From positions 2,046,001-2,110,000 of the forward strand of contig JAUFOR010000002.1 in the NCBI GenBank assembly GCA_040285745.1: 64,000 nucleotides of DNA, written 5' to 3'. Below, one piece after another: positions 3,757 to 60,074 of this stretch. Position 1 is the stretch's first letter. Each line of letters starts with the position of its first letter. The DNA comes from Barthelona sp. PCE. Lineage: Eukaryota. Below the pieces are notes generated by a model. It was not told the DNA's origin. It did not search any database and worked only from the letters and a program-made list of their open reading frames with translations. The position numbers were made by a program, and so were the translations under genes.

Positions 3757-4657
3757 CTAACAGTTGCATGTGCCGTCATCAGTGCTACCATTGGAGACCT
3801 GTACAATCTCAAACATGTCTTCATCGTCGGTGTCGTTCTCCATATCGGTCTTGACCTGTTCGGCGACGGAATGGAATAAGTCAGTAACACCTGAACCAGA
3901 CTTTGCTGAAGTTCTAAAGTAAAGAAGATTCTCACTTTCTGCCCACTCACGTGCCTCGTCACCGACAACGTCTTCAAGATCGTTCTTTGCTGCAACAAGT
4001 GCAATGATGCCAACACCGTGTGCACGAAGATCTGCGAGCCTCTTCTTAGTATTCTCGAACGACTCGTGCGATTCAACAGAGTACACTAGCAATGCAATTT
4101 GAGCATCGCGGTAGTACATGGGGGTGAATGCCTGGTAACGGTCCTGACCTGCTGTGTCCCAGATCTCTAGCTTGACAATGTGTCCGTTACTGAGTGGAAC
4201 ATGTTGGAAAAGGAAGGCTGCTCCAATAGTTGATCCTAGTTTCTCGACAAACTGGTCCTTGACGAATCTGAGCACGAGACATGATTTGCCTGCGGCGGAA
4301 ACTCCTAAATATTAGTGATGCTCAAAATGATGTTGAGAAATTCTAATGAAAAAATGCATTGGTTGGCTCAAAAAATTCCAGATGGACATGAACGCAAGCA
4401 TGAGGCGTGTGAGTTAACGTGATTCGTTGTGAATGCCAACGTACGATGAAAAAAACAGCAATACTAACAAGACAACAAGAAGTCTGCTATTCCTTCGCAT
4501 TTGGACTCTTTTACGATCATAAATAACACAATATAGGTATTTGTCAATCCTGAACGCATAATTTGAACACAAATAAATTTCCCGTTATATGAAGCATACC
4601 GAGTAAAACTACCTTGGCCACGATGGGGGCTTTGTTCTGTTGAGCAGCTGGTGCCAT
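3757..4657 (-). CDS. RAB5: Rab5-family small GTPase (exons 4657-4600 and 4304-3757)
   Basis: Spliced product KVVLLG|VSAAGKS, STIGAAF, WDTAGQDRY, PMYYR, TSAK, C-terminal CNC prenylation motif. Confidence 0.85.
4305..4599 (-). other. Spliceosomal intron, 295 nt
   Basis: GTATGC...ACTAATATTTAG; removal restores the P-loop in frame. Confidence 0.9.
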
Positions 4658-5069
4658 TGAAAAAGTCAAATATGCTGAATGAAAGGGATATAAAACGGAA
4701 AACAGTATTTCAGGGTTTAATGAGTATCTCACTTTGCTAATTAAGCTATACGTGGACGTTTGCCACGCTTTCAGCTATTAATTTTATATGCCTGCAATCC
4801 ATCAATTACAAGATTTTGACATGCCTAAAAGCACTTATTCACACTGTGAAGGCGTGAACTTCACTTTTGCCCACATTTTTCCATCTAAAAACTGTCAGAT
4901 CGGGTAAACAATGGAGAGAGAAATTTAGCTCATCGCGGAAACTGTACACTTGAGCATATTTACTTTTGACATTGGTGCAAGCTGCTGATAAATTGTGGTT
5001 ACGATTCTGAAACAAACGAAAAACGCTGTTTAACTAAATTTTCCCTTTTCGCATCGTATTTACATAACA

Positions 5070-6772
5070 ATGTCTAAGAATCATCTTGATAAACTTTTTG
5101 AGGAGGGTATGTAGATTGAATCGAAACAAAAACAATGAACTAACATTAAGCCACTTCAGGTATCAAAAAGCAAAAGAAAAAGCCTTCTGATGCTCCTCCA
5201 GGTATCAGCGGCCGTAAAAAGACGCAGATCGCACCCCCGGGAATCAGTTTAACGCGCAAAACAAAGGCTAAAACACTAACTCTTGATGAACTTGAAGGTG
5301 ACCTCGTTAAATCCGAAATCACAACCTCCATGTTCTCCGAGAAGACAGCTCCCATTGAGGGGGGATTCCTCAACATTGCCGGCTTTGAACCACCAAAAAT
5401 TCCTGATTTTCAATTAGAAAGCGATGATGAACTCGATATCATCGAACCACCTGCCCCCGTCGAAGGATGGCAGCCGTTCAGCTTCTGGAAACAATGGAGC
5501 GACGAAGAGGACAACGATTCAGATTCAGATTGGTTTGCCTCGGAAGATGAGGATGGTACAACTGGTAGAGGCCAAAAGGCTGAAAGTGGCATGCCTGAGG
5601 TTGTACAGATGGAACTTCGTGTCAGCAGACCGAAACCCATTTCCTACGAAGGAGAGCTCCCAGAAGATATGCTCTTCCATGTCCCCACCAAGTTTTTCTC
5701 CAATACTCGCCCGCACCTGATGCTCCCTCATGATGTAATTGATGTAACGCGAAAAATCACTCATTTTAGAGCTCACGATCTTTATCATGAAGATTTTTAT
5801 TATTCAGCTACCAAGCCTTACTTCGCTCCCCGATTCCAGCCAGAGCTATCGAAAATCACTAGAAAGAAGCCTTACATGAATAAGCTTGTCTTTGGTCAAG
5901 AGACTTTAGGTTGTATCATTCCTGCCAGGTTTATCCAGGGCCCATCGCCTGTCATTGAGCTTCCCCCCACCAAATACGCAAAACAGGAACTCATATACCC
6001 ACCGACGAACCTCAAATTCATCACAGAGCGCATCAAAATAATTGGCCTCTTCCTCCAGGATCTCACCTTGTTCAGTAAGAGGAACCATGGGAGCAACACA
6101 GACGGCGAGAAGGCTGCAGCTAACGAAGCTTTGTTTGAAACTTTGGGTCTCTCAGGTTCTTGTCTTGACCTAACGTTTAAGGGGCTCATTCCGATCTCAG
6201 AGATCCTCTGCGCTGTGTTTCAGGACGGAGTCGCATTCGAGTGGCTGCTCAAGTCCCTGAAAAACATCAACAAAGGTGGTAGATTTGCTATGCAACGTCT
6301 CCTTCTCTTTTCTTCTCTGTTCATGCCTCCTGTTGGCGCATTCTCCCTTGCAATCCACACGTTCCGCAAGTGGTACTCGTACGCAGACCCGCGCTACGTG
6401 GAGAACGTTCTCGAATGCCTGATGCACTATCTCGTTATCGAAGACGATGAAGATTTGAATAAGCACGGTTTTATCCCATTCTTGATGCAGCCCACGTCCT
6501 TCTCATACCTGTTTGAGCTATTCAACATACCCGTTGACGCTGAGCACAAGCAATACACAGCCGAGAAGTATTTCCCTGCCCTTCTACGTTATTTCGTTAC
6601 AATAATCGATGGAGTCGACCCTCAGCACATCGTTATCAGGTCTATCTTCTCGTTAATGAATGCTTGGGGACGTGTCCACCCAGATTGGTTGAGAGATATG
6701 ATTGAGTATGAGCTCGATCCTTACCGTGATAGTTTCCCCCATTTCTCTGAAGCCAATCAGTTCTTTGGATAG
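5070..6772 (+). CDS. Pat1-like mRNA decapping activator (exons 5070-5106 and 5151-6772)
   Basis: Splicing joins ATG 5070 in frame to ORF 5330; TLTLDELEGDL motif, Pro-rich region, DLYHEDFYY and helical C-terminal domain. Confidence 0.55.
5107..5150 (+). other. Spliceosomal intron, 44 nt
   Basis: GTATGT...ACTAACATTAAG; frame restored on removal. Confidence 0.9.
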
Positions 6773-6823
6773 TTTTTATTAATAAAGTGATTTTGTTGTG
6801 TTAGAAAAATTTTTTTAAATTTA

Positions 6824-7225
6824 TTATCCAAAAGCTTTGTCTAATGCTTCCTGAAGCTTAAATCCAACACATGTATAGTCAGTTGAATAGGATTTGCTGA
6901 ATCTCTGCTTGGTTGTACATGCACTCTTTGCACTATTGTAAACAGAACTACAAGATTTGATAGCATCTCCGACCTGCATACAGAACTTTAGACATCCGGT
7001 ATCCAGACGGGTATTCTTGCTGAATCTCTCTCTTTTGGTGCAACCCCTCTTGAAAGTCCAGTATGAACCACATACACCACCATTATCAGCACAATATTTA
7101 ACACAAGTACCGTCAGTTTGACTATAACTGCTGTAAGGCTTACGATAGGTGCAGCATCTCTTGCACTGATACGAATTCACAGTGGTAGCACAAATAAGGA
7201 AAAGAATGAAAATTGTTTTTAACAT
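6824..7225 (-). CDS. Small secreted cysteine-rich protein with three internal repeats
   Basis: Hydrophobic signal peptide; repeats CTYRKPYS..TDGTCVKYC / CTKRERFSK..LDTGCLKFC / CTTKQRFSK..TDYTCVGF. Confidence 0.7.
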   Translation of the reverse strand: MLKTIFILFLICATTVNSYQCKRCCTYRKPYSSYSQTDGTCVKYCADNGGVCGSYWTFKRGCTKRERFSKNTRLDTGCLKFCMQVGDAIKSCSSVYNSAKSACTTKQRFSKSYSTDYTCVGFKLQEALDKAFG

Positions 7226-7586
7226 ATTAAAGAAGTAAAGAATATTAAAAGAAGAAAAGAATTAGATTTATGTTATGTTAATGAGAAAATCAACTATTTA
7301 TGCAGAATTTCGGATTGGTAAAGAGTAATATTACGTTATACAGATTAGATTTCTTGTTCGCACAATAAACTCTCTACAGGAACGTAAAATAGACACAGCA
7401 AAATATTTACATGCAGAAGTGCCCAGAAAAACATTGATGCAATGTTTTTTCTTATATCATTAATTTTGAGCTTCCTGTTTATTTTACAGTCTACAAATCC
7501 ACTAATTAGATCTACAAATATGCCGTGCCTCATGAATATGATAGGATTAGAGGAAATGCTAAAGATAAGCAAAATCACATTATGTT

Positions 7587-8351
7587 TTACAACTCTTCCT
7601 TCTCAGCTTCTGCTGTTCTACGCTTCATCTCGACATCATAGTTAAACAAGCGTGACATAGATACTTCTCCCATAGTAATCTGTTTTTTGTGGAAATCAAG
7701 CTCTTCTTGCAATTTTTCTCTAATTTCCTTATTTTTTGCAATTTGATCTTGTAACAAATCCATAGCCTCATCGTAAGTGAATTCAACCATTGTCTTTGCA
7801 CCAAGCCAGAAATAAATCGAATCTTTTGATGGATCAATGGTTGCGGTACTATACAGATCATCCGTTAACATATACTGAATGTCAAACTTATCCTCAGCCT
7901 CGTGCTTCTTCTTGAGATCCTGGACAGTCTGGTAATCGCCTTCTAATTTGGGAATCATAACGTGTACGCTCTTTAAACTGGAAAGAGTTCTTACTTCTGC
8001 AGTCTTGTGACGAGCAATTAAATCATTGAAGAAAGACAGGGCCTTCTCAATACCAACTGCTTCGACAAAGGTCTCAACGCTCTCCTAAAGATGAGTGGTG
8101 CTGAAAATATTCGCAATCAAAAATTAGGTTTCAGTATGGTCCAAAACACTGATTGTACAACACAACTATCATCACTGACAGTGCCGCGTGAAGCGGTTTT
8201 GCTGCTGCACAGCGTGTCATTACATGTGAAACACCAATGTTATCAACGAATAAAAGTAAATCCATACAATAAAGGGCATGGCAGTAATCTTATCCCTGAA
8301 GTCGGGGAAAATGCGGCAGCCGGGAAGTGCTTGGGGGTTCTGAGTTTGCAT
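7587..8351 (-). CDS. PFDN3: Prefoldin subunit 3 (VBP1) (exons 8351-8268 and 8084-7587)
   Basis: Spliced AMPFI|ESVETF; IYFWLGAKTMVEFTYDEA and KKQITMGEVSMSRLFNYDV match prefoldin-3. Confidence 0.9.
8085..8267 (-). other. Spliceosomal intron, 183 nt
   Basis: GTATGG...ACTCATCTTTAG, phase 0. Confidence 0.85.
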
Positions 8352-10124: not shown

Positions 10125-10151
10125 TAAATTTGTTTATTGCTATTACTATTG

Positions 10152-12763: not shown

Positions 12764-13132
12764 ATGTCACAAGACACCGTGGTCGAAATGGAAACGCCTA
12801 ATCTTGATGACACGATTGCATCTCTTGAAAAAAACGGAAACTCGATTCTTTCTAATTTGGAAAGTATTTACTCTATTGTATCTCGTATGAATTATCTATA
12901 ATACCATTAAATCAGCTAACACCCAGGTAAAAATGAAGAAATCGTTGCTACCATAGAAGAACGCCAATCTCAAATGAACAACAGATTTACTCAGATTGCA
13001 CAGTATATCAATATGTGCATTGAAGATTGTAATAACAAGAGCCAGGGCATCAATGAATGCACCGAACGTATCCAGAGTACGCAGCAACTCTTCTCGAATA
13101 TGCAAGCACAGTTTTCTCAAGCTATTCAGTAA
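12764..13132 (+). CDS. Small coiled-coil protein, 108 aa (exons 12764-12884 and 12927-13132)
   Basis: Removing a 42-nt intron gives a continuous ORF MSQDTVVEMET...FSQAIQ* that the ORF track misses. Confidence 0.75.
12885..12926 (+). other. Spliceosomal intron, 42 nt
   Basis: GTATGA...GCTAACACCCAG; contains an in-frame stop. Confidence 0.85.
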
Positions 13133-15095: not shown

Positions 15096-15241
15096 CTTAC
15101 TGATCTAATATCCATTAAATGCCTCACAGTGCAGTATTTTATAGCCTAAAGTTAAAAAATAACCTTGTGAATGCGGTAATATTTTCGAAAACATACTTTG
15201 AAAACGTAATACACTTGATTTATTCTCTAATTAAAAACAAA

Positions 15242-16405
15242 TTACGGAAGAACAGAAAAAATTCTATTCCGCTTAGAAATAGTCAATTTAGCCTCATATG
15301 AACCTGAATTACATCCACTGTAATAAATAGTAAACGAATCTTTTGCCTCATTATTCTTACGTATTCCATCAACAAAAACTGAATTGGGAGTTTGTCCTCC
15401 TCCATCAATGCAAGTTTCATAAGATTTATCTGGACTCAAAATCGGTGACTCACTTCTGTATCTTATTCTTCGTGGATTGTTGCCGTTCAAAATCAGATAC
15501 CCAACGTTATACTGCAAGTCATAATTTGGTTTGGCAGTTGTATGATTGAATTTTCTCGCTGAATTGTACAAAAATAGATAATTGCCATCACTCAACTTTA
15601 TGGGTGGTGGTCCGGGAATAACAAACTCAGAATCAAAGAAATTTTTTCTTGGCTTCAGCCAGGCTTCCGTGTTGCATGTCCAGTTAATCATATTAACTGG
15701 ATTGCTCCAATACAAAAAAGATTTATCTCCCCAAATCATGCCTAAGATATCATCGCCATCCAGCAACACAGCTCCTCCCGTTGATTTCCTATCATTATCC
15801 CCCCACAAAGGACCATTCTTTGTCCATGTGTTAGGAAGGCCAGATGGGCTCAATGCTAATGAAAGTTTGTGATTTCTTGAATCGTCTACAACAGCAACTG
15901 AGGTATAAAACATGTAATAATAACCTGTTTTCTTCCAAAAAACGATTCTTGGGTCTTCAACACCCGCATTGTCGATTCCTGGCGTATCTGGGGCAAGCAA
16001 AACATCCCTCATGGTGATATTGGTGTAAATTCCTTTTTCAAATTTGGCATACATGATGAAAGATGGTCCTACATCATAGATTGAGTCACCAGTTATGTTC
16101 TGACAACGCACAGCAATGGATATTTCTGAAGTTCCATCGCCCTGATTGTGTCCGTAGTAACAAGCATTATAGTTGTAGTCAAAAACTGAACTTGATGAGT
16201 TGTTATAACCATTTCTTTTCAACTCCACATTCCACACCCAATTTTCCTGTATCATGAAAGCTATACACGCATATGACATCAGACACAAACATGTAAAAAG
16301 TATGCAGCTTCCATGCTTTCTGCAACAGCTTCTATGCTTAATGGTTGGATCTGGATGGGTAACGGATGCCTGTATCAATGAAGTTGTGACATGTACTACA
16401 GGCAT
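15242..16405 (-). CDS. Membrane-anchored glycoside hydrolase, GH130/five-bladed propeller type
   Basis: N-terminal TM; GVEDPRIV, YYMFYT, PGPPPIKL..GNYLFLYN, PNSVFVDG motifs. Confidence 0.75.
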   Translation of the reverse strand: MPVVHVTTSLIQASVTHPDPTIKHRSCCRKHGSCILFTCLCLMSYACIAFMIQENWVWNVELKRNGYNNSSSSVFDYNYNACYYGHNQGDGTSEISIAVRCQNITGDSIYDVGPSFIMYAKFEKGIYTNITMRDVLLAPDTPGIDNAGVEDPRIVFWKKTGYYYMFYTSVAVVDDSRNHKLSLALSPSGLPNTWTKNGPLWGDNDRKSTGGAVLLDGDDILGMIWGDKSFLYWSNPVNMINWTCNTEAWLKPRKNFFDSEFVIPGPPPIKLSDGNYLFLYNSARKFNHTTAKPNYDLQYNVGYLILNGNNPRRIRYRSESPILSPDKSYETCIDGGGQTPNSVFVDGIRKNNEAKDSFTIYYSGCNSGSYEAKLTISKRNRIFSVLP

Positions 16406-16944
16406 GCTGTTTGGTGATAATTATTAACTCGAAAATAAAGGGAAAAACATAAAACACTTCAAGCTACATGCTTGTGAAGCATTATTAAACCCAAAGCTCG
16501 CAGTGTATTTAGTTTATGCACGGTGTAATCGCTAAACACAGAGATTTAGCATGCTGAAAGAAAAACCTCGAATATTGAGCATACCTCATTTTTTTACATT
16601 TAGATATCATTTTTGCTCTTAACAACATTTTATAAGACATTTTTTAAACCCAAATTCAACAAAAACCTAACAAAAGAACAGGCAATACCTTGCCTTTTAC
16701 TTATTACACTTCAGTTACTATTGATGAAGTTGTTCTAACGAAACCTATCGATTAAACCTCACAAAAGATGTTTGTTACAAATGTAATAACGCAGTTTGTC
16801 ATATATGAGCTTTTGTTACACTATACTACTTTAATATTGTTTGTATACATATATGACCTCCTTTAAATGACAGTAAAATGAAAAACATTTATGTTGTGTT
16901 GTTTAAAGAATTTTTTCTTTTTCCTTCGGGTGCTTTATTACATA

Positions 16945-19900
16945 ATGTTTGTGATCTTTAGGGATGATCACGGACGCGCTTGTGTCAAGCAACAGCTCAA
17001 TACTACAACAAACGATGTTGAAGTAACACAACTCCGTGAAGATGATGATTTCACGGGTGACTATTGGGTTTCACAAGACGAAAGTACTTTAGCCATTGTG
17101 TACTCATTTTGTATCAGGTTTTTTCGTGTTCCTTCGTTTGAACTATTTCATGTTGCTGAACAACAGGATAACGAGTTGATAAGTGTAAGTCACGGTTGTC
17201 TAAGTGCTGATGGGAAAATGTTTACCTTTTGTTTAAACAAAGGAGAAAATAAGGTGTATAATTCTATTCGTTTAGAATCTGATTTTGTTAATGTATCATC
17301 CATTTCTTTTAAAGATGGAGGAAGGTGTTGGGTCAATTCTAAATATATAATCATCCAAAAGGGTAAGGAGTTTTACAGATTAGTTCATGAAGAACCAAAA
17401 GAATCCAGTTTAATTAAAGGAAATATCGTAGTGCAGGACAGAAACAATGAAATGTACGTGATACATCGACATGGGTTTTTTTCAACTAAAATCGATGTCA
17501 TCGACGCTGAAGGATCTGTGGAAAGTTTTTCAGAACTGGAAAAGGTTCGACCGATAGAGTATGCTGATATATCAGAGCAATATCTTGTCATTGGTAACAA
17601 AACAACGTTTCAGGTGTACCACAGACAAACAAGAGAAGTGGTTTTGCAATTTGATAGAGAATGTGACATCCAATCTATTCTTATATCAAGGAATCAACAG
17701 CATATTTCATATGTTGAAGATTCTTATTGTGTGGTATGTGATATTAGAGAAAGAAAACGTGTTGCTGAAGTATGCAAAACATTTGTGAGACCAACAACCA
17801 TGTTTAAAGTTTTGGATGAGGAATTAATTTTATTGAAGAATACAGACGAAGCATTTATTTGTTTCAAGAAAACAATAATCTTGTGTGAGTCAAAGTATTT
17901 TGTGTATCCAATTCACCGTGGTTTTCTGTTATTTTTTAACACAAGAGTTTTTTGTTTAAAAGAGGATGGCAAGAAATGTAATACTTACGAATGTCATGAA
18001 GGAAATGTTGTTGATGTTTCAATTATTTTGGATTCTTCTTTGTTAAATGTCAAATTTGAAGATGGTACTAGAATGCTGCTTGAGTGGAGTCCCATTAATG
18101 GTTTTGGACGAACTGCAAAATGTAAGAATTTGGATTTAGATTCTGATGTATCCATTAATGATTTGTGTTTTATACTTGCTGAGCAGCTTAATGAAAAACA
18201 AACTTTTGAACAGCAACTCAGAGAACAGGAGCAACGGAATGAAGAACTTTTAGCTCAAATTACAAAAATGAACGAAAAAGCTTATGAAGAACAACCCAAA
18301 GATAAGGATCAACAAAATGAAGAACTTTTAGCTGAAAATACAAAAATGAAGGAAAAATTTCAGGCAATTTATGAAGAATTAAACAAAGATCCTCATAATT
18401 TTGGTAAAGAATACTACACTGAATTGATTTCACGTGTTGATGCATGTTCTAATGAGATCAAGGAACTTGTTAAGCCACCCCAATCTTTCTTTGACTGGCT
18501 ATCTTCGAACCCCACCGTGGATTCTATATTTGATAGTTTGGGAAATGTCAACATGGCAAAGGAATTTGTCAACAATCTTAGAAGTGTTGTTGAGAGACAC
18601 GGCTTTACTGGTCACCTTAGGGTTTCGTTTGGTTCACAATATAATATTATTGCAGAAAACCCCATTATTGGAATACTTCATGAAGATAAAATGAAGGAAA
18701 AAATGAGGGAACTGCTCGAACTAAACCCTTTCTTTGATTGTTATAACCAATGTTTGGAACTGAATTATCAGGCACTGTTTTTAGACAACACAAGCAACGC
18801 TATAAACTTAATTGATATCAAGTTTAGGAATATTCAAGAAGATATGAACAAATTCCGTTCCATCAAGCACATAACGAAAGCAATCAACAAAACGAACTTC
18901 AATTCCCTTTTTTCAATCAAAGAGCAGATTAATAATTATCAACACGATGTCTCAACTTTTGAAACTACTTTGTTCAGTAATGCAAGGAATGCACTCATTG
19001 CTGAATTGTCAGATATTCAACAATCACTCAATGATATCATCAGGGAAGTGAGTTTTGAGAACGTGGATATCATTGCTGCACTTGAAGAGCTCAATCTATC
19101 AACTATCAATTTTCCATTTGTTCCTAAGGTTATTAACATCAAGTACGCTCAGGGCACACTCAGATTTGCAAGAACATGGAACTCAGTTCAGTTCACTGAT
19201 GATCTGTGCTTAAAATGCTTTTGTTTTTCAAGTCTTTACCTTGGAGATAAGGAGAGTAATTTGAAGGATTTGAGACATGAGCTAAGGGTTCTGACTCGGT
19301 CCGATCCATGTGTAGTTGAGCTTAAGGGTGTGACGCTGGTATACGATCAGGAAGAAAATGAGGATCCAACTCTGGAATTCGTTTGTCTCGAACTTGAAAG
19401 GGCGCCTTATGACCTTGAGCAGTATTTGACCGAATTCCCCGATCTAAATGAGGACACTAAAATCTCCATAGCAAAGCAACTCGTTAAATGCGTATTAACG
19501 ATGCACACAAGGGGAATAATGTTGCGTGACATCAAGCCCAACAACGCCCTTGTATTCTGTGATGAAGACGGTAACAACCCAATCATAAAGCTTTGCGATT
19601 TTAGCGATAGCATAGATCCTCAAAACACACTTAGTAGAACTATCGCTGCAGCAGCGTTTTATATACCGCCTGAAGTGGCGCGTGGTGGCCCACACACAAT
19701 CATGGGTGACATTTTTTCGCTTGGGAGAACAATTTGCAGAGTTTTTGGTTCACCAATAGATATTAATGAATTTTTTTGTCCTCATTCAGACATATTAAAA
19801 AAATGTGAACATCTAGAACCACTTGAAAGACCGAGCATTTACGAGTTGGCGTTGAAGTGGGATATTGACTTTGACCTGGACGTTCGCAAGGAAATGACCA

Positions 19901-33884: not shown

Positions 33885-33959
33885 AGCGCTATAGAGTAAT
33901 TGGTTATCTCGTGAGGCTCATAACCTCAAGGTTTCTGGTTCAAATCCAGATAGTCGCTA
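33885..33959 (+). tRNA. tRNA-Met (CAT)
   Basis: Anticodon arm TGAGG-CTCATAA-CCTCA, T-arm TCTGG-TTCAAAT-CCAGA, acceptor AGCGCTA/TAG(T)CGCT; oligo-T terminator follows. Confidence 0.9.
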
Positions 33960-34566: not shown

Positions 34567-34567
34567 A

Positions 34568-40741: not shown

Positions 40742-40973
40742 AAAAAAATAAAATACTGCCCATATCTGAATTTAATCTCTATGAGATTAAAACTATCCCA
40801 CTTTTCGCATCTTATTTGAACTTGTAAAACTTATGAAATGGTGTGAAAATAAAAAACAGAATTATTATCGCTACAAGTACATTAACGTTCATATTTGAGT
40901 CAAAAATTTTACATTGATACGTTCAACGTCAACATTCGTTCGTTTCTACTATGAAAAAAAAAATCCAAAAAAG

Positions 40974-41045
40974 CACGATTGACAGGGATCGAACCTGCGA
41001 CCCTGAGCTTAGGAGGCCCAAACTCTTCCACTGAGTTACAATCGC
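40974..41045 (-). tRNA. tRNA-Arg (CCT)
   Basis: GCGATTG/CAATCGT acceptor, ACTC/GAGT D-stem, TGGGC-CTCCTAA-GCTCA, GCAGG-TTCGATC-CCTGT; T-run downstream. Confidence 0.95.
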
Positions 41046-41181: not shown

Positions 41182-41294
41182 TTATCCTCTATCCTACACC
41201 TTGGATGGTTTACTGAAGTGACAGCCTGCATGTTGGGAGGGCAGACAGAACGAACCGTTAGACAGGACGGGTACGGATCAATCAAGATACCGCC
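41182..41294 (-). repeat. Split direct repeat B2 (113 bp)
   Basis: Identical by eye to 41705-41817. Confidence 0.95.
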
Positions 41295-41565
41295 GCACGC
41301 TACGTACCCGTAGAGCCATGATTAGTGGCTAACTGTCTCGCTATTGAGAAAATATGATGAAATTTTTTGTAAAATTTCTTGATAAAACTTACCTGCGTTC
41401 TTTCTGCACTAGGATATAATTTATGCAGAAGATGATGAAAGACTTTCTTGGATAATCCAGCACAGAATGTGTGCGGAGTAGTTTTTTCCAAGCTCACGGA
41501 AAAACAACAAAAAGTTTCGAAGATTATGCTTGAAATTTAACTTTCTGGTTTTTTGTCTTTTTTAA

Positions 41566-41704
41566 TTTTTTGAATTCAGGAAAGAAATCGAAAAGCAGTT
41601 ACTCGAGTCCGAGTAACTTAGCTAGGATTATTCTTTAACTCTCACTATCAGTGTATGTCATCTAGGTTTCGGGTGCATCAAGATTCCGATTGCCATCAAC
41701 TACA
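41566..41704 (-). repeat. Split direct repeat A2 (139 bp)
   Basis: Identical by eye to 47856-47994; abuts B1; contains hairpin AGTTACTCG-agtc-CGAGTAACT. Confidence 0.95.
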
Positions 41705-41817
41705 TTATCCTCTATCCTACACCTTGGATGGTTTACTGAAGTGACAGCCTGCATGTTGGGAGGGCAGACAGAACGAACCGTTAGACAGGACGGGTACGGA
41801 TCAATCAAGATACCGCC
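41705..41817 (-). repeat. Split direct repeat B1 (113 bp)
   Basis: Identical to B2; overlaps the YR stop codon. Confidence 0.95.
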
Positions 41818-43025
41818 CATTCTCGTATCTGGTTTATACTGTACAGTTCCCCCGGCATGGCGTACTCCAGGTCGTGAATATCCAGGTAATACTTATTCAT
41901 GGTTTCATTGGCGCTCCAGCCCCCAATCTGTCTGGCTGTGTCTTTGTCACCATGAATTTTGATAATATCTTGGCATCTCCCCGCTCTTATGGCGTGGGGG
42001 TTGAATCTCGCTCCAGGCGGTGCACCTATGAGGTTTGGATCGTCAAAGACGGTGTTAAACCTTTTTAGAATTTTTTGCTTCCCGGTCTTTTGCTCCTCTA
42101 CTGAGGAGTAACGCGGTGCCCTGCCGCTTTGTTTCGAGTACATGCACAGTAAACGGCGCAAATACACTTTCGTACCAATATTTTTTGGGGAGTTGTTACA
42201 AAACGTCCTTTTCGGCTTTTCCCATGCGTTTTATGCTTTGGGATTATCACTGAGAGGGATTGCTCCATGCTGTTTTCATGAAGAGTGATCTCAAGGTGTC
42301 GTTTTTCTATAAAATTCAATTCTCCCGATCTACAACCGAGAATGTAGTGGATCGACAGTATTTGGCAGTCCAGGATGCATTGTTCCACCTCCTGTGAGAC
42401 CATAGCACTTATTTGGTCTCGTGGAGAAATTTTTGTCCTTTTGGGGCTCTACGATAGTCTCGTGGGCTCTCTCTTGGACGAGGAACAGCAGCTTCTGGAC
42501 CACAGACGCTCTTATAGCGCATTTATAACTGTGTGATTTGGGGATTGCTCCGCTTTCGTCGGTTATGATCTTTGTACGAGCTGAAATGAGGTACTGCCTG
42601 TCTGTATCTCAGGCGTCCTCCCAGCAGCCGGTTGTAAGCAGTCTAATAACTCTTAAAGAGTTTCTTAGAAGGGATCCTTATGCATCAAGAGTGCTACTCT
42701 TGTAATGCAGGATTTGGGCTGTGTTGCCTTCGGGCGATTCGCCCTTTTCGGCTCTCTCCACTAGGTCAGCTATGCGTAAACCTACTAACAGTTTGCAGTG
42801 GCTTGGATTTTTTATCCAGCCATACATCCTCCTTATTGCATTCTGATTAGCTTCAATGTACTGTCCAAATCGCTTGATGGCGGTCCTGGCTGTGCTTAAG
42901 GAACCTTTTCTTAAGAACAGCGCCAGGAGTTCGTCTACTCTCATTATTTCGGCTGGAAACCTGAAATGTTTCCTCACTATGAAGGGGACATCTATCCTTA
43001 CGAAGTCAGTGTCGCCCTTCCACAA
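41805..43025 (-). pseudogene. Tyrosine recombinase (frameshifts and in-frame stops)
   Basis: LGCRSGEL (catalytic R), IPKHKT (K), PHAIRAG (HxxR), IGGWS..TMNKYY (W, Y); N-terminal STARTAIKRFGQY. Confidence 0.85.
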
Positions 43026-45480
43026 GCTTCCTGCTTGTACAGCCTTTGATTTGACAGGGAAAAATTTTTTCCGGGTTGATGGTAATTTCGCACATTTCTT
43101 TCCATGGACGAACGAACTGCGATACCATACCCCACACGGGTGTGGATGGGAGAGGTTGTGGTAACTTCTCTGATAGTAACACCGGTCCTAAGGGCCGCTA
43201 GTAAAATAATTTCTAACGCCGCTGCTGCTGACTGGGCAGGGACCATCTGTTCGACTGTGTGGCTCTCTCTTCCGATCATATCTATCTCAAACTTCGGTTT
43301 AGAGCGGGGGACTGTGTATATTATATCTTCCAGTCCCTCAAACACTGGTGTTGTATCAATTTTGTCTTCTCTCAGTTTTAAGAAGGGTGCCATTAACTTG
43401 GGCAGTCCCTGTCGTCTCGATACGGGCATAAACACTAAGTAGTTTTAGAGTGTTTTTCGAAACAAGTTCATTACCCGGATGCAGCCAACTGAGCGGCCGC
43501 TCTTGTCCTGTTTTGCTCTCGCTATGAGGGGGCTGGTATGGCCCGGCTCATAAGCGCTTGGGACGACAGAATTTAGAATTATAATCTCCTTTGGGGGAAC
43601 GAGCTCTTGAAGGAAGGTTCCCCTCGATTGTTTCCAGCAGACTGGCTCTCCACGCGAGGCCATGTCCGAAAGGTGATTAAGTACAGAGGGAACGTAAATC
43701 GCTTCCACAACAAGGTCCTTCTCTCGGCAGAATATTCTTGCCAAGGTCCGGGCAGCATCATTGGGGACAGTATTGCACGACGTTAGTTTGTACGTCGCAG
43801 CTACCACATAAGTGTTATCGCAATACTAAAACGAGATATCCGTTGGATAGCTTGGACCCGAGGCTGTGCAGCATAGCCATCAGGGGTTCCGTCTCTGCAT
43901 AAGCGATCGACAGTTTTGTTTTCTGGATCGCTTTCGCTTTATCTTTTGCTGATAGCATATTCAGCCTATCGATGAGTTCATTCTTGGCAAGATCAATGCC
44001 GCCTCCACTGCGAAGTAGCAGGTGTTCGAAACAGGTTTCGTCAACATCATCCGTTGCGAAAGCTGTGCCTGCGATACTTATTTTCTCTTCACTTACAGCA
44101 GCGTCACTTATTAAAAACCCGCTTTTTCCTGGTGGAAAGAAGGGGTTGTGGTGGAAAATCGTGATCGGCTAAACTCGCAAGGGTACACGCGAGGTGGTGT
44201 GCCTCGTTTGTACCAATGAATCCAAGTGGAGACCCGCTGGTAGGGTCTGTTGCCTTTGGCTGGGCCTCGATCTGGCCGTATTCATGATGCTGGACCTCCT
44301 TCAGGTCTTGATCGCCGATCGTGAGCGATCTCGTCATGAGCCACTTGGTTATTTTTCCAGGAATGCCATCTTTATCCTTTCTTCTTTTCTTTAGTGCTTC
44401 GTGTATGATGGCATTGATCGTAATGGCGGAGACATGTAGCTTTCTGCTAGCAGCTCTAAACGCCGTGCACTTCGATGCAAGTTCTACGAAGTCTTTTTTT
44501 TCCTTGCATGAAGCTTGTGGGCCAGTTCTTGAGCCCTTAGCGCGATCTTACGGCAATTAGCATCACTTGGTGCTAATGCCACTTTCATATTTGGATCGTC
44601 CGGCGGTCCAAAGGTAGATGTGATGGTGAAACCTATCACATCTAATTTCTTACATGGTTCGACAGATTTTTTCTTGTTGATAGTGATATCCAACCAGAAA
44701 CAGATTAGCTTGAGCAGACGCATGGCGTCGCTGGCACTACGGTATCTGCCTCTTCGATCTGGGGATTGCCATCCGAAAACATCGTCTATGTAGGCCCATA
44801 GTTGGTAACCTAGAGCACGCATAGGCGCTAGGGCTAGGTTCATCAACGCTGAGAATATAGCGGGGCCAAAACGTGACTCCGAAGCACAACTTTGTGCACC
44901 GGTAAAAGCCACCGTTGAGGGAAAATGTAAAGAACTTTTGAAAGTCTTCCGCAATGGGGATGAGATGGAAGCCGTTGGATGCATCGATGGAGAACAAATC
45001 ATCGTTCGGGTTTACCAGGTTAAATAACCGCACCTTGGGCAGTTCCATTGGGAACATGTTAAACATGTCGTTAATCGGGGTGCAATCAGTAATAATTCTT
45101 ATATCACTTACTGAGACATCTTCGAAGTACTCCTCAATGTCTTCTCGGCTGGCCCAGTCTTGGCTGAGGGCGACAATGGCCGATTGTTCGATGCCTTTGG
45201 GCACCACACCGATTTTAATAAAAGCTGTTTTTACGCCAACAGGAGGTTTCGACATTTCCCAAGCTGGGTCATGATCCAGCTTAACAAAGGCGTCGCTTTT
45301 TTCTATCTTTTCCTGTACTAGGAGGGAGATGAGCGATCCATCCTCAAACCAGTTTTCTTATGGACCGTTAAACGGTCTTTTACGGATTTGAGAAACGTTT
45401 TTTGATTACTCATGACGTGATGGGCGCTTATTCCGTGCGTCAACATCGATTGGAGGTTGGTGGAATGGTCGTCACTTAAA
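42998..45480 (-). pseudogene. Reverse transcriptase-RNase H (frameshifted)
   Basis: IRIITDCTPIN, SIDASNGFHLIPI, LCFG..GPAIF, AYIDD, IGFTI; RNase H LISDAA, IAYAE, YCDNTYV, VPSVLNHLSDMASR. Confidence 0.9.
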
Positions 45481-47807
45481 CCTGCGATTTTTTCATAGTA
45501 TCGATGCGTTGACGGGTTTGAAGAGGCGCATGTGGGATCGTCTGTAACGTATACTCCATGAATTTCTCTGCCTTGTCTAGATATATTCCTAGCTCTCGTA
45601 TTTTTAGGCCGGGGATAGCGTCCACAAGAGACGCTGGCGGAGATGGCTCAGCCCAACCAGTTAGGTCAGGGGCCTGTATACTTACTGTCTCACTCGCTCC
45701 ACGCTGGGGTTCCTCAATGCTGGCTGAGATTGGCCTGGCATTTTTCTGCACCGCAACGTTAAGGCGGTTTTGAACCACTCAGCACTCAGGGTAGGTCCTA
45801 CTGGGCCTACAACTGGGGATATGTGAGGTTGTGTTGGTGTTGGTGTTGGTGGCAACTCCTCAACAGGTTCTGGTGCGATAATGTGGGATTATAGGGATGC
45901 GACAAGCGCTATATCCATGTATAAGTCCCTATCGCGGGAGGCAGCCGCTAGATCTGCCTTAAGTTTGGGGATAATGACGCTTTTTTTCGTGCTTCAGCTT
46001 TACGCTTTCTGCGCCTTTGATCCTCCAATAAACCTCGAATTTCGAGAAAAAGGTGTCGTTATGCGGGCCAACTAGCGCCTCACGGTGCTGTGGCGGCATA
46101 ACAGATGCGGACAGTTTCTCAACTGGGATTTACAAGTGAGAGATTCGTCATCTCACTTTCTCCTGCCTACACTCTCCTGGATTGCTTGCGCTTAGGGACA
46201 TCAGGAGGGCGGGAGGTCGACGAATAGCGTCGAGGTGCTGGTAGGGGGGTTGCACAGGGGAGTTTATGACCCTCGTACAATCTGCCATAGATGTGGCGTC
46301 GGTTACCGAGATTTTTTCTCAAGGCCCTCATGAAACTAGACTTTTCATGGGTGACGCCACGGCCGATGATGGTGAGTAGGATGATCTTCATCAGGTACTC
46401 AGCCACTGCCTATGGCTACCGTCAGCTCCAGGACGCGGTGGGTTAGGACCACTGGGACTACCGTTTTTAGACGACTAGCGTGATACTGTCTTCTCTTTCA
46501 AGAATTTGAGGAGTTGCTGGGGAAGCTGACGCTCTCGTTCAAGGCTCTTTGCCGAGAGGAGCTGTCAGGGATGACCCCCATCCTGTCTAAAACGTCCGGG
46601 ATTCCCGGGGAGGACTTACAGCCGAGGTAGCTGCTGGTCCTGGTAGTGTCAAAAGTGGTTATTACGGATTTCTCACAGTTTTTTCAACGTGGTTTTCTAC
46701 GGATTTCTCACAGTTTTTTTTCAACGTGGTTTTTTAAGGATTTCTCACAGTTCTCAAGTGTGGTTCTTAAGGGTTTCTCGCAGTTCTTCCATTACTGGAG
46801 GAGCCTTCGGGCTTGGACTGCTATCAGCGAGGTAAGGAAATCATTCATCCTTACCCTGGCCTCTGGGTCTGTGCCCCCTTGTGGTGTGACCAAAGTGGGG
46901 CCTCAGGCTCCTCAGGCGCCTCCTCGACATATCGGGAGACGCCGCGAGATTTCACCTTGAACGTTGGGACAATCTCATCACGTACTTCCGCGACGTTACT
47001 CGCGGGCTTGAGGACTGCCTTAAAGGCTGCCTCGTCAAAGTCACTGGCCGCCTGGGGCTTCCTACGTGTACTTTGTGCTAGATGTCTGACGCGATCTAGC
47101 TGAGGAATCGCAAGCTCAAAGAGCATCTTGTTGCCCCTGGCTGTCTGTTGATGTCTACTGAGAGTAAAGAAGACGAGAAAGAGGTGGAAAACGTAGATTT
47201 ACGTTTCTTCCCTCTTTTGAGACTTACTATTTTATTTATTTTTAAACTATTGTGGGTGTAGGTACGAGGTACCTGCGTCCTCAGTAGGCTCGTCTTCTTC
47301 TGAATCCCACTCTGAAACTCAGTAAACACACTAGCAAGTTTTACTCCTTTGATAGAGTAACATGCACTCGAAGTAAGAATCATATCCCAAGCTTTTTGTG
47401 CGATTCCTGCACGCGACCTGGTAAGGTCGGCTGTTGCCTTTCTTATTATCCCAGCGGTGGCCTCCGCTGTGGGCATGCCCATAAAGAGGAGGAGTAACGC
47501 GTACTGCTCCCCTTTGCCGCCCTCGCTGCTGCCTCTGTCCCAAACCCGCTGGGGCTGGGCTCATTGTGGTTTAGCAGCGGTATTTCATCTACAGTGTGCA
47601 CCCAGGATGCCAATAGGACAGGTAGTACTATGCCGCTCAAGTGAAACGATTTCTTGAGCTTCCCGAGGTCTGGGGTGTCCCTGAGGCTGTACATAGTCTC
47701 AAAGGTGGCGACTACCATGTCCCTGGCCCTCAACAAGGGCTCCTTACAGTATGTTTTTAAATTTCAAAACTTAGATATTCTATTCCCTCATTTACATAAC
47801 CCGACAT
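45480..47807 (-). pseudogene. ORF1 / gag-like region (multiple frameshifts)
   Basis: Probable ATG at 47807 (MSGYVNEGIEYLSF); chain of overlapping ORF fragments upstream of RT. Called by position only. Confidence 0.5.
46657..46785. repeat. Degenerate ~31-36-bp tandem repeat x4 in ORF1
   Basis: GGATTTCTCACAGTT at 46666, 46701 and 46738, plus a variant at 46772. Confidence 0.8.
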
Positions 47808-47855
47808 TGAACAAAGGATTTAAATCTCAATGTATATCAATCTTTGACGGGTTTT

Positions 47856-47994
47856 TTTTTTGAATTCAGGAAAGAAATCGAAAAGCAGTTACTCGAGTCC
47901 GAGTAACTTAGCTAGGATTATTCTTTAACTCTCACTATCAGTGTATGTCATCTAGGTTTCGGGTGCATCAAGATTCCGATTGCCATCAACTACA
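47856..47994 (-). repeat. Split direct repeat A1 (139 bp), 5' end of the element
   Basis: Identical to 41566-41704. Confidence 0.95.
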
Positions 47995-48263
47995 GTTATA
48001 ATTTTGAATAAAATTATGGTCTAACTATGTAAAAAAAAGATTCATTTTTTAATTTTTTAAAAGATTAATATCTAAAAATTTAATTATTAGAATTGAAGAA
48101 ACATTAATAGTAAAGTCTTTTATAGTTAGTAGGCAGGTTTTTTTGAAATAGTTTATTGTGCTTTTATCTTTTAGATATTATACTGAAGTAGGTTTATTGA
48201 CGTCGGGGAACGCTCACGTGGGAAGGCTCGCCTTCACGTGTAGAGGGTGTTTCGTCCGGGAAG

Positions 48264-48559
48264 TGGCCTAAAACCCTTTTTTTTTTGAAAAAGGTAAGAA
48301 AAACCGTATCGGGTCCTACGGACACCTACTACACATGACGGTTCGCTTCGTCCCCCTCCGCTGTTTACTACCTCAAGTATAAAGTCTGAAGGCTAGCGCC
48401 TGTATGTCACCTGGCCTAAAACCTTTTTTTTTTGAAAAAAGGTAAGAAAAACCGTATCGGGTCCTACGGACACCTACTACACATGACGGTTCGCTTCGTC
48501 CCCCTCCGCTGTTTACTACCTCAAGTATAAAGTCTGAAGGCTAGCGCCTGTATGTCACC
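48264..48559. repeat. 148-bp tandem doublet
   Basis: TGGCCTAAAACC...TGTATGTCACC at 48264-48411 and 48412-48559, differing only in homopolymer lengths. Confidence 0.95.
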
Positions 48560-52069: not shown

Positions 52070-53156
52070 TGTAAATAAACTGTTGAAAAGGAAAATGTTT
52101 GTGATATCAGCTTTGTAAAGCTTTTTTTACAGAAAGATCGGCCTATAAATAAGTATAGGAGTTGATCGAGTGAAAAGTTTGGGGTGACAGCTTACATTTG
52201 CATTTTTGCATTTATTTGCAAGCTATGCGAGAAGGATTTCATTCAGCATTTACATCATTGAATATTTTGTGCTGGGGAAGGTCTGAGAGTGGGATTATAA
52301 CTTAAGTTATGTCTTGTAATTAGGCGTTTTCTAAAAGAAACTCTACTCTGTATCATTTGTACTTTTACGAGTATTAAATATAGCTGTGAAGCTTCGGCTG
52401 AGCTGATTAAAGGAGTATTGGGATTGAAAACACCACATTTGATAATTCAGTACAATCAAGTCGACTCCACGCGAGTTAACTCAATTCGGACTACTCTTTC
52501 CTTTAATCTTAATTTTTTTGTGTTTATTAATAAAATGAGTGCTTAATTTTTTGGTTGTTGATATTTGTTTATTGTATTTGGTTTCTTATGGCTCATCATA
52601 TATGTAAGTTACAGGGTACTCTTGAAAAGATATACCAATTCTGTTTAGTCAGATAAAAACGCCAAATAGCTGGAATTCTCATTGGGAGTAAGCACGATAT
52701 TCATAGTACTGCTTTTATGTGGATAAATATTACTTCTATTGTACTTTTTTGAAAAAAGGTACCACATATTAAGGGCAGATATCCAAATTATACTAAAGGA
52801 ACAAAAACACGTATGAAGCCGTTCAATCTGCTATAAAGACAAACACATTTATATCATAATGTGGTTAAAACTGTTTACGTTGAAAAAATACAAAATGTGA
52901 ATTTCTTCCTTAATTCAGTTTTATATCATCTATATCAGCAACCATAACACACACAAATCCAAATCACACACTGATGTATTTGAAATATGAACATACGGTG
53001 TTTTTAGAAAATATAAACTCAATGTAGATCAATACACACTTTTTTGACGAATTTGAACAAATAAAATTGTAGGACACACGTCCCTGTCAACGTGGTAATA
53101 TTAAAAACTCGTTACACATTCATAACCCATTTCGTGTCTACTAACAACAAATTTTA

Positions 53157-54672
53157 ATGGAAAGTGCAACAATTATTCCCGTGAATTCGGAGAGAAAGGT
53201 TATCAAAGAGGACGTCCCCGTTCTACTTAAGGTATGTGATATATTCGCAAAATTTTGTGTTCAAGAAGCGTCTGACTTGGTTGTATAAGTGCTGATCGGA
53301 AGTGGCTGCCAGTTTTCCAGTGTCATACGAGTGTCTAGTATAGAACATTGCAATAATAAGTTGTTTTTCTATACAAGCTACTCATTACATTTGGAATTTT
53401 TGGAACCTCACTTTCAAGGCCAATATTGCACCGAATATATGTCAATATGCAAGAAACACACCTGCGATAGAATTAAAGTTTTTTTCTAACATTTAGGGTT
53501 GGGATGAGATGAACAACACTGGAGCAAGCTACACACCACTTGAGGGCGGTCACTTGCCTAACAAGAGACCCCTGGAAGAGCATCTCAAGTACGGTTACAT
53601 CAGTTTGGATAAGCCTGCTAATCCTTCCACTCATGAGGTTGTATCTTGGATCAAGCGCATCCTTCGTGTCGAGAAGACCTCAAGCACAGGAACCTTGGAT
53701 CCTGCTGTTACTGGAGAGTGTGTCATTCTACTTAACCGCGGATCTCGTCTTACAAAGGCTCAGCAGGAAGCAGGAAAGCAGTACGTGTGTCTCTGCCGCC
53801 TCGGTGACCCCACCACCAAGGACCCAGACTTTGTGATGCCGACAGAGCAGGATGTTATTCGTGTTCTCCAGGAACTCACTGGACCTCTTCTTCAGAGGCC
53901 ACCAGAGAAATCAGCTGTCAAGCGTGTTCTCCGTGTCCGTAAGATTACCAACAACACCCTCCTCGAGTACAAGCCCGAAACCAGACAGATCCTCTTTACC
54001 AGCGACTGTCAGGCTGGTACCTACATGCGTACTCTTTGCGAGCACATTGGTATCATGCTCCGCACCACTGGAACAATGGAAGAGCTCCGTAGAAGCCGTT
54101 CCGGCCACGTCAGCGAGATGAGCGCAGTGACCATGCACGATTTGTTGGACGCTCAGTATCACTATGACCACACTGGAAGCGAACTTTTACTCCGTGAGGC
54201 CATCCATCCTCTCGAGGATCTGCTCGTGCACCACAAGCGCATTATCGTTAAGGATTCATGTATCAACGCCTTATGTTACGGCGCCCCCCTCCACTATCAG
54301 GGTATCCTTAGGTATGATGCCGAGATTGTCGAAGGAGATGTTATTGTGCTTGTGAGCACAAAGGGTGAGGCCATTGCTCTTGCTACAGCCGGTTTATCAT
54401 CATTCTCTCTACAGAACGCTACCTTTGGCATCGCTGCTCGTATTAAGCGTGTCATTATGGATAAGGACACTTATAAGCAGCGCTGGGGTAAGGGTCCTCG
54501 TGCGTTGCAGAAGAAGAAGCTGAAGGAAGATGGAATGCTGGACAAGTACGGTCGGCCTAATGATCGTACCCCTCCTGAATGGTTTAGAAAGGTTATTCTT
54601 ATGAAGGGAGAAGAAGAGAACCGCAAGGAAGAGGGTGAAGGAATGCCCTACAAGATTCAGCGCACCGAATAA
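53157..54672 (+). CDS. CBF5: H/ACA pseudouridine synthase Cbf5/dyskerin (exons 53157-53231 and 53497-54672)
   Basis: PVLLK|GWDEM; LDKPANPSTHEVVSWIKRIL, GTLDP, AGTYMRTLC, PUA domain. Confidence 0.95.
53232..53496 (+). other. Spliceosomal intron, 265 nt
   Basis: GTATGT...TCTAACATTTAG, phase 0. Confidence 0.9.
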
Positions 54673-54832: not shown

Positions 54833-55449
54833 ATGGCTCCGAAGTACGATAAGAAGATCATCAAGCAATTAGAGAAGATGGGCGCCGAGAAAGTCGAGGA
54901 TTTCTCACGTATTGCCTTGAATCATCAGGAAGTATGTGTTTCAGCACCGTTTCTTTATTTTAAGCAGCTGGGTAGCAACGAGTTCCGACCTTAAGGGATT
55001 TGGACAACCAGCAGCAAAGATATTGGTGTTGTATTGTTAACAATGCCTCTAATATTTAGTACCAGCTTGTTTTCACTGATAAGTTTAGCGTTTACCAAAT
55101 TCCCGGCACCGATACCTACTATGTGATCGGTAGCTTCGGTTCCGTTGACCTCAACCAGGTTCGTCAATTCGATAGCATGATGGAGAAGGGTGCCAACGCT
55201 CCTGCTATGGAGACCCCCGCTGTCCCCACACAGGCTGAAGCCACACAGGAAGAGGGATCTGCTGAGGAAGAGATTCCTACTGAGGAAGAGATTGCTGAGT
55301 ACATTGCTGATGTTGATATGGATGAGTACGAAGAAGATTTGCAGGCCATTATCGCCAACAAGGAGATGTCCCGTGAGCTTGCTGCTTACTACCTTAAGAA
55401 GTACGATTTTGATCCCATTGAAGTCGTTTTGAACCTTGGCACTGAGTAA
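54833..55449 (+). CDS. Nascent polypeptide-associated complex alpha-like (exons 54833-54931 and 55060-55449)
   Basis: KKIIKQLEKMG, VYQIPGTDTYYVIG (NAC domain), C-terminal UBA-like region. Confidence 0.8.
54932..55059 (+). other. Spliceosomal intron, 128 nt
   Basis: GTATGT...TCTAATATTTAG, phase 0. Confidence 0.9.
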
Positions 55450-57426: not shown

Positions 57427-57481
57427 TTTTTTTTTTTTGGGTGTTTTCATTTGTGAATTCAGTTTTTTAGTAAAATCAATT

Positions 57482-58642: not shown

Positions 58643-58703
58643 TTTTCTATTGAAATCGGTTATGAAAAATAAAACTCATTAAAAAGTAATACATAGAATT
58701 TAC

Positions 58704-60074
58704 TCATTCCTTGAAATGCTCGAGCCGCCTGTTGCGGTATGTCTGGTAAAGGTCATTCTTAAATTCAAGCGTAGATTTCAGCTTCTGTTCGTTTCCGCGT
58801 AAAACATCTAAAAACTCGGTGTTCTGCTGCACCAAATCATCTACAGTTGTTACCTTTAGCTTGAACTCCTTGTTGATGATATCAATTTCGTCGTCCAAAC
58901 CACTGGGGAACTTGTAGCAAACTTCCCTTCTAGTGTTGTTGTATATGTTCGCAATGACTGGCCCCAGCACCTGCTTGGCATCTTCGACGTCATCCAATAC
59001 TAGAGTTTCTGATTGGATCTCCCCGTATCCCATCTTGAGGGTGATGTTAAAATCCTCAATAGGCTCCTTCGGCACAAGCTCCTGTGGCACCTCGATATGC
59101 TCTTGGTTGAGGTCAACAGGAAGGCACTGGTCGATGGAAGTGAACTGTATTGTCGTTGGCGTGGGTTTCGGTAGAGCAACCTTTGGTACCTGATTTTTTT
59201 CATCTTTCTCAGGGATGTCAACCGGTGACAGTGGGATAGTGAGGCTGGGCATTTTCTCGTCACGTGTTACGCTGATGCTAATTTTTGCGGGTGGCGACTT
59301 CACGTTCTTCTCATCTGATCGAGTTAATTGAACCAGTTGACAAAGGGCGTTAATCGAGTCTATCCATGACTGGGCAACGATGCCGTTCACGGCAAGAAAC
59401 ACCAGTTTGATAGTGGAGAAGTGCACGACCCACACTCCTTCCTTGACGCCAACAAGTGCAGGCTCTGTGATGGATCCGAGGCTCAGGTTAAGAATAGGTT
59501 GCTCATCCCCTTCTCTCTCGTATATAAGCATGCGTTCTTGCGTCAGGAGGAGGAACACACGCATGAATGACATGTCTGGTCGGCCCAACTCGCTCGGGGT
59601 GGGGCTCAACAGGGCCATGTTAGCGGATTTGATAGAGGATACACTGAACTCGCTAACTTCCTCCTTGATGCTACGTAATATCTGTAGTAGCTCTTCTCTG
59701 CGACCATTGGTGACAGAGAACGTGAAGAAGATGCTGCTTTCGAGGAGATTAAATGAAAATTCGTCCTCATTATCTTTTGCTGGTTGGATCGATGAAATAT
59801 CTGCGATTGAATGTGTGGTTGTGAGCGCGTTGTCTCTGGGAGACACGATACGAATTTGTTTGTGCTCTAAATATGAGATTGTGACTTTTAAAAATATCCT
59901 AATCTTCCTTACACGCAGATACATATATTTGGTACATGTGGAGTACCGTTATATGCTGGATACGCTTCATAAAGAAGATAGATACACTGTAGACATACCA
60001 ACAACTAGTTTTCTGAGTAGCTTACGTTTCCCACTGCCCACGATCTTATAGACTTCAAATTCTGTGACCGTCAT
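58704..60074 (-). CDS. Tandem PH-like domain protein with C-terminal coiled coil (exons 60074-59999 and 59866-58704)
   Basis: Spliced MTVTEFEVYKIVGSGKRKLLRKLVVE|HKQIR; AQSWIDSIN is a PH-type terminal helix. Confidence 0.7.
59867..59998 (-). other. Spliceosomal intron, 132 nt
   Basis: GTATGT...TCTCATATTTAG; restores the frame to ATG 60074. Confidence 0.85.

Follow-up and report, generated by a model that had tools for sequence, protein, structure and literature searches.

The 64-kb stretch of Barthelona sp. PCE DNA analysed here (contig JAUFOR010000002.1, positions 2,046,001 to 2,110,000, hereafter the window) is gene-dense, eukaryotic and about 40% G+C, and it carries seven predicted introns, two of them short (44 and 42 nt) and five long (295, 183, 265, 128 and 132 nt), whose length and folding are the subject of this work. 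Barthelona sp. PCE is a free-living metamonad of the BaSk clade, which is sister to Fornicata, and its genome (10.2 Mbp, 40.3% GC, 5064 predicted proteins) is given in the accessible part of the genome paper as the smallest on record for a free-living eukaryote (Williams et al. 2024, PMC11316075). According to the same part of that paper, RNA-seq was used for mapping, training and validation of the gene models, and introns appear there once, in the methods. A search of the accessible literature, which left the supplementary files of the genome paper outside its range, found no paper on barthelonid introns or their spliceosome.

The introns were located by scanning for GTATG followed by a branch-like motif, after which the flanking open reading frames (ORFs) were joined. 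All seven, including the two short ones, were found where a preliminary description of this DNA had implied them. They are listed below together with the stems predicted in the long ones; tails are the bases lying 5' and 3' outside the outermost pair of the outer stem, and all series of five values follow the order Rab5, prefoldin, Cbf5, NAC and the orphan 412-aa gene, which the preliminary description had called the PH gene.

4305-4599, minus strand: intron of a Rab5-family GTPase gene, 295 nt, GTATGC...ACTAATATTTAG.
4575-4583 with 4335-4343, minus strand: outer stem of the Rab5 intron, GGGAAATTT pairing with GAATTTCTC, tails 16+30=46.
5107-5150, plus strand: short intron i44, 44 nt, GTATGT...ACTAACATTAAG, in a 552-aa gene without a Pfam family; predicted from splice motifs and ORF joining.
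8085-8267, minus strand: intron of a prefoldin-subunit gene, 183 nt, GTATGG...CTCATCTTTAG; junction predicted from motifs and ORF joining.
8247-8252 with 8108-8113, and 8227-8232 with 8128-8133, minus strand: stems of the prefoldin intron, TATTCG/CGAATA and GTTTCA/TGAAAC, tails 15+23=38.
12885-12926, plus strand: short intron i42, 42 nt, GTATGA...GCTAACACCCAG, in a 108-aa gene; predicted from splice motifs and ORF joining.
53232-53496, plus strand: intron of the Cbf5/dyskerin gene, 265 nt, GTATGT...TCTAACATTTAG.
53245-53249 with 53463-53467, and 53256-53261 with 53455-53460, plus strand: stems of the Cbf5 intron, TCGCA/TGCGA and TGTGTT/AACACA, tails 13+29=42.
54932-55059, plus strand: intron of a NAC-domain gene, 128 nt, GTATGT...TCTAATATTTAG.
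54942-54948 with 55025-55031, and 54952-54956 with 55016-55020, plus strand: stems 1 and 2 of the NAC intron, CAGCACC/GGTGTTG and TCTTT/AAAGA, tails 10+28=38.
54967-54971 with 55008-55012, plus strand: stem 3 of the NAC intron, GCTGG/CCAGC.
55031-55047, plus strand: small extra hairpin in the 3' tail of the NAC intron, 6 bp, -3.9 kcal/mol.
59867-59998, minus strand: intron of the orphan 412-aa gene, 132 nt, GTATGT...TCTCATATTTAG.
59980-59984 with 59895-59899, and 59970-59979 with 59902-59911, minus strand: stems of the orphan-gene intron, TATCT/GGATA and ATCTTCTTTA/TAAGGAAGAT, tails 14+28=42.

The splice signals are uniform across both length classes. Every intron starts with GTATG, the next base being T in four introns and C, G and A in one each, and every intron ends with a fused branch/3' motif, [CT]T[AC]A[CT]-N4-AG, so that the distance from branch to 3' splice site is invariant. 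A stricter form of this 3' motif matches 11 times on the two strands of the window, seven of which are the seven introns; it terminates in ATTTAG or CTTTAG, and the branch sequence is CTCAT in two of the seven. In all cases the intron lies 37-121 nt downstream of the start codon, a strong 5' bias such as is seen in intron-poor genomes. The density amounts to 7 introns per 64 kb, and the structured, long introns form the majority (5/7). On these features all seven are predicted to be ordinary spliceosomal introns spliced in cis, in which the 5' splice site is extended and the branch point forms one motif with the 3' splice site.

Splicing at the predicted junctions yields proteins that are residue-for-residue identical to the deposited ones for three long introns out of five, namely those of Cbf5, NAC and the orphan 412-aa gene. 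The spliced Cbf5 translation equals database protein P0001 (416 aa), and its exon 2 shows 100% identity to 'hypothetical protein PCE1_000951 [Barthelona sp. PCE]'. The spliced NAC translation equals P0122 (162 aa), and here the NAC domain (residues 6-58) bridges the junction at residues 33/34, with the Pfam cut-off passed only by the spliced protein. The orphan gene (58704-60074, minus strand) gives a spliced translation equal to P0121 (412 aa); its product matches no Pfam family at E<=1 and, among the 5.8 billion proteins searched, only the identical deposited entry, so that the PH label finds no support from Pfam or from homologues. As for the Rab5 gene, exon 2 matches the Ras profile from position 8, the best PDB matches are of Rab5 type, and joining of the exons restores the P-loop GxxxxGKS, as read from the translation. 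The Prefoldin domain of the prefoldin gene is located in exon 2.

Several further intron candidates were considered and set aside. A 42-nt candidate at 61195 (plus strand) was taken as coding, being in frame within a long ORF and having its 3' motif off-spacing. Like it, three others could not be verified: 19048-19143 (plus strand), which starts GTGAGT and lies within an uninterrupted 1416-aa ORF; 60186-60292 (plus strand), which starts GTGTGA and is intergenic; and 15146-15196 (minus strand), a 51-nt candidate upstream of a start codon whose 3' motif is one base short. As well, an unverified eighth candidate of 178 nt was seen at 16407-16584 (minus strand), which starts GTATGC right after an ATGAG mini-exon, is in frame with a 387-aa ORF (15242-16405), and carries the 3' signal ATCAC-N5-AG, one base off the spacing of the other seven.

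The five long introns range from 128 to 295 nt and share one arrangement, an outer stem whose tails, for the stems listed, sum to 46, 38, 42, 38 and 42 nt, against 42 and 44 nt for the whole of the short introns. The preliminary description had given these stems and sums, and both hold on re-examination: every listed pair occurs in its intron, and the bases outside the stems were recounted exactly. The short introns themselves are essentially unstructured, with a minimum free energy (MFE) of -1.4 kcal/mol for i44 and -0.2 kcal/mol for i42.

The long introns were folded with RNAfold with the first 6 and last 12 nt held unpaired, as the binding region of small nuclear RNAs and proteins, and without supplying the stems. 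One dominant outer helix was obtained per intron, which is the listed stem, with tails of 46, 38, 42, 40 and 40 nt. Over eight settings of constraint width and temperature (40 folds), the tails of the Rab5, prefoldin and orphan-gene introns stayed constant, NAC gave 38 or 40, and a single Cbf5 fold, at 20 C, gave 28. Boltzmann sampling (1000 structures per intron) returned the outer stem as the commonest state, at 74%, 81%, 50%, 52% (with a further 29% shifted by one pair) and 39%.

The closeness of the two ends is a general result for RNAs of such size. Because end closeness alone would be expected of any RNA this long, the weight of the evidence was placed on the position of the stem and on the agreement of the five introns. 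Among 300 dinucleotide shuffles of the interior per intron, the tail sum had medians of 48-68 nt and reached the range 36-48 nt in 9-16%, while a stem leaving a 5' tail of 10-16 nt and a 3' tail of 23-30 nt occurred in 0.7-3%. When one shuffle was drawn per intron, the probability of a range of at most 8 was 6e-4, and that of all five falling within 43±5 was 1e-5; random genomic segments (200 per length) gave the same two P values. The tight clustering of the tails across the five introns is thus non-random. Moreover, the duplex between the 45-nt flanks at either end is more complementary than that of shuffled flanks (z -2.59, -2.28, -0.87, -2.82 and -2.73; Fisher p 8e-5). The comparison of folding energies with shuffled introns, which the preliminary description had named as a possible refutation, came out in favour of excess stability for the five introns of the window together (whole-intron constrained MFE, z +0.32, -1.93, -1.83, -2.91 and -4.01; Fisher p 5e-4) and against it for Rab5, whose energy is no better than that of its shuffles. 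The shuffles generated by the folding tool itself concur for the two introns checked (orphan gene, z -3.15; Rab5, z +0.08).

The sense strand is favoured as well. Sense cores are stabler than antisense cores in all five long introns, by 5-14.5 kcal/mol, and the z values for sense and antisense are +0.34/+1.74, -1.73/+0.26, -1.91/-1.98, -3.54/+0.31 and -4.44/-0.09, respectively, so that the composition-corrected excess is specific to the sense strand in four of five, with Cbf5 symmetric. The basal helices carry 0-2 G-U pairs, and the earlier remark that such pairs favour an RNA-level structure agrees with this count and with the strand asymmetry. Searching the introns against the 64-kb window by blastn returned no second copy of any intron interior, the introns being mutually dissimilar, and Rfam gave no family match within any of the five at E<=1. 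The sense-strand excess, the lack of copies in the window and the lack of an Rfam match favour a structure at the transcript level rather than a palindromic insert in the DNA or a small RNA hosted by the intron. A metagenome scan with the Cbf5 protein found seven loci, all at <=49% identity, among which there was neither a close relative nor an orthologous intron.

Taken together, the outer hairpin probably restores the long introns to short-intron length. The 90-249 nt of surplus sequence in each long intron would be looped out at the RNA level as one irregular hairpin, the basal helix of which would begin 10-16 nt past the 5' splice site and finish 15-22 nt before the branch adenosine. Outside the stem, the linker from 5' splice site to branch measures 38, 30, 34, 30 and 34 nt in the long introns and 34 and 36 nt in the short ones, and the fused motif would set the remaining distance from branch to 3' splice site. 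A reduced spliceosome tolerating only a narrow distance between 5' splice site and branch would handle both intron classes alike. We infer that the stems form in vivo and may have been retained since the spliceosome of this organism tolerates only such a narrow distance.

The same arrangement could have arisen by insertion without any ruler, if old introns of about 42 nt had each taken up a sequence able to pair with itself, for instance a mobile element that is palindromic or has inverted repeats, and the tail sums were a record of that history. Such an origin predicts tail sums near the short-intron length and a single hairpin filling the remainder, as observed, and the Cbf5 intron, equally stable on both strands (z -1.91 vs -1.98), is like a DNA-level palindrome. 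Nevertheless, the interiors have no further copy in the window and are unlike one another, the stems are irregular and contain G-U pairs, and the antisense strand is no stabler than shuffles in four of five introns, which a decaying DNA palindrome would not predict. An insert resembling a miniature inverted-repeat transposable element was rejected on the lack of further copies in the window and the sense-only excess stability in four of five introns. Survival of only the self-folding inserts would, moreover, itself imply a length constraint, and we consider an insertion origin without a ruler unlikely. The hairpins might instead serve another job, for instance as an intron-encoded small RNA, a site for a regulatory protein or a control of intron decay, their position being incidental. 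Long introns in intron-poor genomes often host small nucleolar RNAs (snoRNAs), and the prefoldin intron contains, at 8128-8180 (minus strand), the strings GTGATGA and CTGA, which resemble snoRNA C and D boxes. These two strings are only about 35 nt apart, no Rfam family was matched within the five long introns at the threshold above, and it is the placement of the stem, but no sequence, that the five unrelated genes have in common, all of which makes another job very unlikely.

Chance combined with choice by eye has to be weighed against the same folds, since any RNA of 130-300 nt brings its ends close, stems of 5-9 bp can always be found, and the stems of the preliminary description were picked by eye. 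In its favour, the z value of Rab5 is about 0, and the measure that counts all unpaired exterior bases is not significant. Against it, MFE folding recovered the stems without prior knowledge of them, their placement is rare in two types of control (shuffles and genomic segments), and both the flank complementarity (Fisher p 8e-5) and the combined MFE (Fisher p 5e-4) exceed the shuffles; chance is, in our judgement, quite unlikely.

A number of observations weigh against length restoration by the outer hairpin. The whole Rab5 intron is no stabler than shuffles (z +0.3, with an equal or better fold in 184 of 300) and stands out by its flanks only, while the stability of the prefoldin and Cbf5 introns is marginal (p 0.04-0.05 in constrained and 0.08-0.10 in free folding). 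A count of all unpaired exterior bases gives 46, 38, 42, 24 and 40, values that are ordinary (P 0.68 for the range; also P 0.30), the shuffles having a median of 27-31, and the exterior path length as a ruler measure was not significant when tested against shuffles. The hairpin in the 3' tail of NAC (-3.9 kcal/mol) would lower its unpaired length to 24. Free MFE folding pairs the 5' splice site in three of the five long introns; a pairing of the 5' splice site near the branch motif in these free folds was dismissed as a signal, as 25-44% of shuffles do likewise. With 5-9 bp, the basal helices are short, and only 2.7-4.5 kcal/mol is lost when they are blocked; alternative outer pairings take as much as about half of the Boltzmann ensemble in Cbf5 and the orphan gene, and at 20 C small additional hairpins appear in the Rab5 and Cbf5 tails. 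In the unverified candidate at 16407-16584 (minus strand), which is built like the long introns, the outer stem leaves 11 nt on the 5' side and 20 nt on the 3' side, so that the tails total 31. The sample is 5+2 introns, and the tolerance windows were set after the data were seen. The preliminary description had spoken of a strict length ruler; its core idea is supported by the statistics on where the stems lie, by the complementarity of the flanks and by the asymmetry between the strands, and the word strict is too strong, because of the 38-46 nt spread in 5+2 introns, the NAC tail hairpin, the alternative Cbf5 and orphan-gene pairings and the Rab5 energy.

The same length idea was previously proposed for diplomonads and Trichomonas, where intron structure was suggested to compensate for a reduced spliceosome, and the property was predicted to be possibly more widespread (Hudson 2019, PMC6679479; here and below, the accessible part of the article). 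Single-stranded lengths reported there are 35-45 nt in Giardia, which has 11 identified introns, 40-42 in S. vortens, 41 vs 43 in S. salmonicida and 25-44 in T. vaginalis (Hudson 2019, PMC6679479). The preliminary description treated both stem-shortened and split introns as established in Giardia, Spironucleus and Trichomonas, which was loosely worded; hairpin-shortened long introns are published for all three (PMC6679479). Like the introns of these organisms as described there, those of Barthelona have a GTATGT-type extended 5' splice site, a branch motif joined to the 3' splice site at a constant distance, short members of about 40 nt (two in the window, 44 and 42 nt) and longer ones paired back to that length. 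The pairing-restored length agrees with this class in all five long introns (38-46 nt), and ceases to do so if every small exterior hairpin is subtracted.

Unlike the Giardia-type hosts, Barthelona is a free-living organism of a different lineage, the BaSk clade. Its 3' motif, ending in ATTTAG or CTTTAG with a CTCAT branch in 2/7, also differs from the Giardia-type motif, which is of the ACACAG type. The window is far denser in introns than those genomes, as far as the accessible text describes them, and its structured introns are the majority; moreover, the folds of Hudson 2019 (PMC6679479) are MFOLD predictions in that text, whereas the Barthelona introns were compared with shuffles. The Barthelona introns share the sequence-level features of the Giardia-type class, to which they add a new lineage, introns at a higher local density and explicit controls.

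A precursor state for trans-splicing had also been suggested for the Barthelona introns, an idea that is already a speculation in Hudson 2019 (PMC6679479). Complementarity between the 5' and 3' intron parts is indeed common to them and to the trans-spliced split introns of Giardia, where it is long (PMC6679479, accessible part). Unlike the split introns, those of Barthelona are contiguous in cis, 128-295 nt long, with both exons on the same strand and basal helices of 5-9 bp. No split gene was seen within the 64-kb window, which offers no evidence for such a precursor state, all five long introns being of the ordinary cis type.

In Saccharomyces cerevisiae, zipper stems are enriched over shuffled controls and are defined, in the accessible part of the report, by a total linker of 42-85 nt and a distance of at least 20 nt from stem to branch point (Rangan et al. 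2025, PMC12350175). The Barthelona stems resemble them functionally and fall outside their geometric definition, with linkers of 30-38 nt vs 42-85; the stem-to-branch distances are 22, 15, 21, 20 and 20 nt, and the 5' distance of 10-16 nt does agree with the zipper-stem rule. Unlike Barthelona, yeast lacks a fixed length of short introns that the stems could match, and the distance from branch to 3' splice site varies there.

Other features of the window lie apart from the introns. A region at 41182-48559 has about 6.3 kb without a long ORF, many stop-to-stop pieces of 80-206 aa on the minus strand and G+C of up to 0.485. It contains perfect 139-nt direct repeats in flanking position (41566-41704 and 47856-47994), a 113-nt repeat (41182-41294 = 41705-41817) and a 148-nt tandem pair at 48264-48559, and one of eight ORF pieces tested gave a weak, sub-threshold match to tyrosine recombinases (Phage_integrase, E 0.01); the region may be a decayed mobile element. 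A nuclear RNase P RNA gene (Rfam RF00009, 54 bits) is present at 52224-52505 (plus strand), between protein genes and just upstream of Cbf5. Two tRNA genes were identified by Rfam, at 33886-33958 (plus strand) and 40973-41045 (minus strand), and ARAGORN finds only the second, tRNA-Arg(CCT).

Extrapolated from 7 introns in 64 kb to 10.2 Mb, Barthelona sp. PCE could possess about a thousand introns that follow a two-class rule, being either 42-44 nt long or longer with a length-restoring hairpin, and with the structured class in the majority; we regard this as possible and put it somewhat below an even chance. Structure-compensated introns have been described in organisms where introns are very scarce, so that the proposal that reduced spliceosomes use a spatial ruler has been based on a few dozen hand-folded examples. 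Should the pattern extend to the whole genome, it would supply a large natural data set, with the sister genomes PAP020 and three Skoliomonas available for covariation. Barthelona would then be the first genome to allow a test of a ruler between 5' splice site and branch that has real statistical power and can draw on the orthologous introns of sister strains, and the trait would date to the common ancestor of BaSk and Fornicata or earlier, perhaps to that of all metamonads, and would not be a peculiarity of intron-poor parasites.

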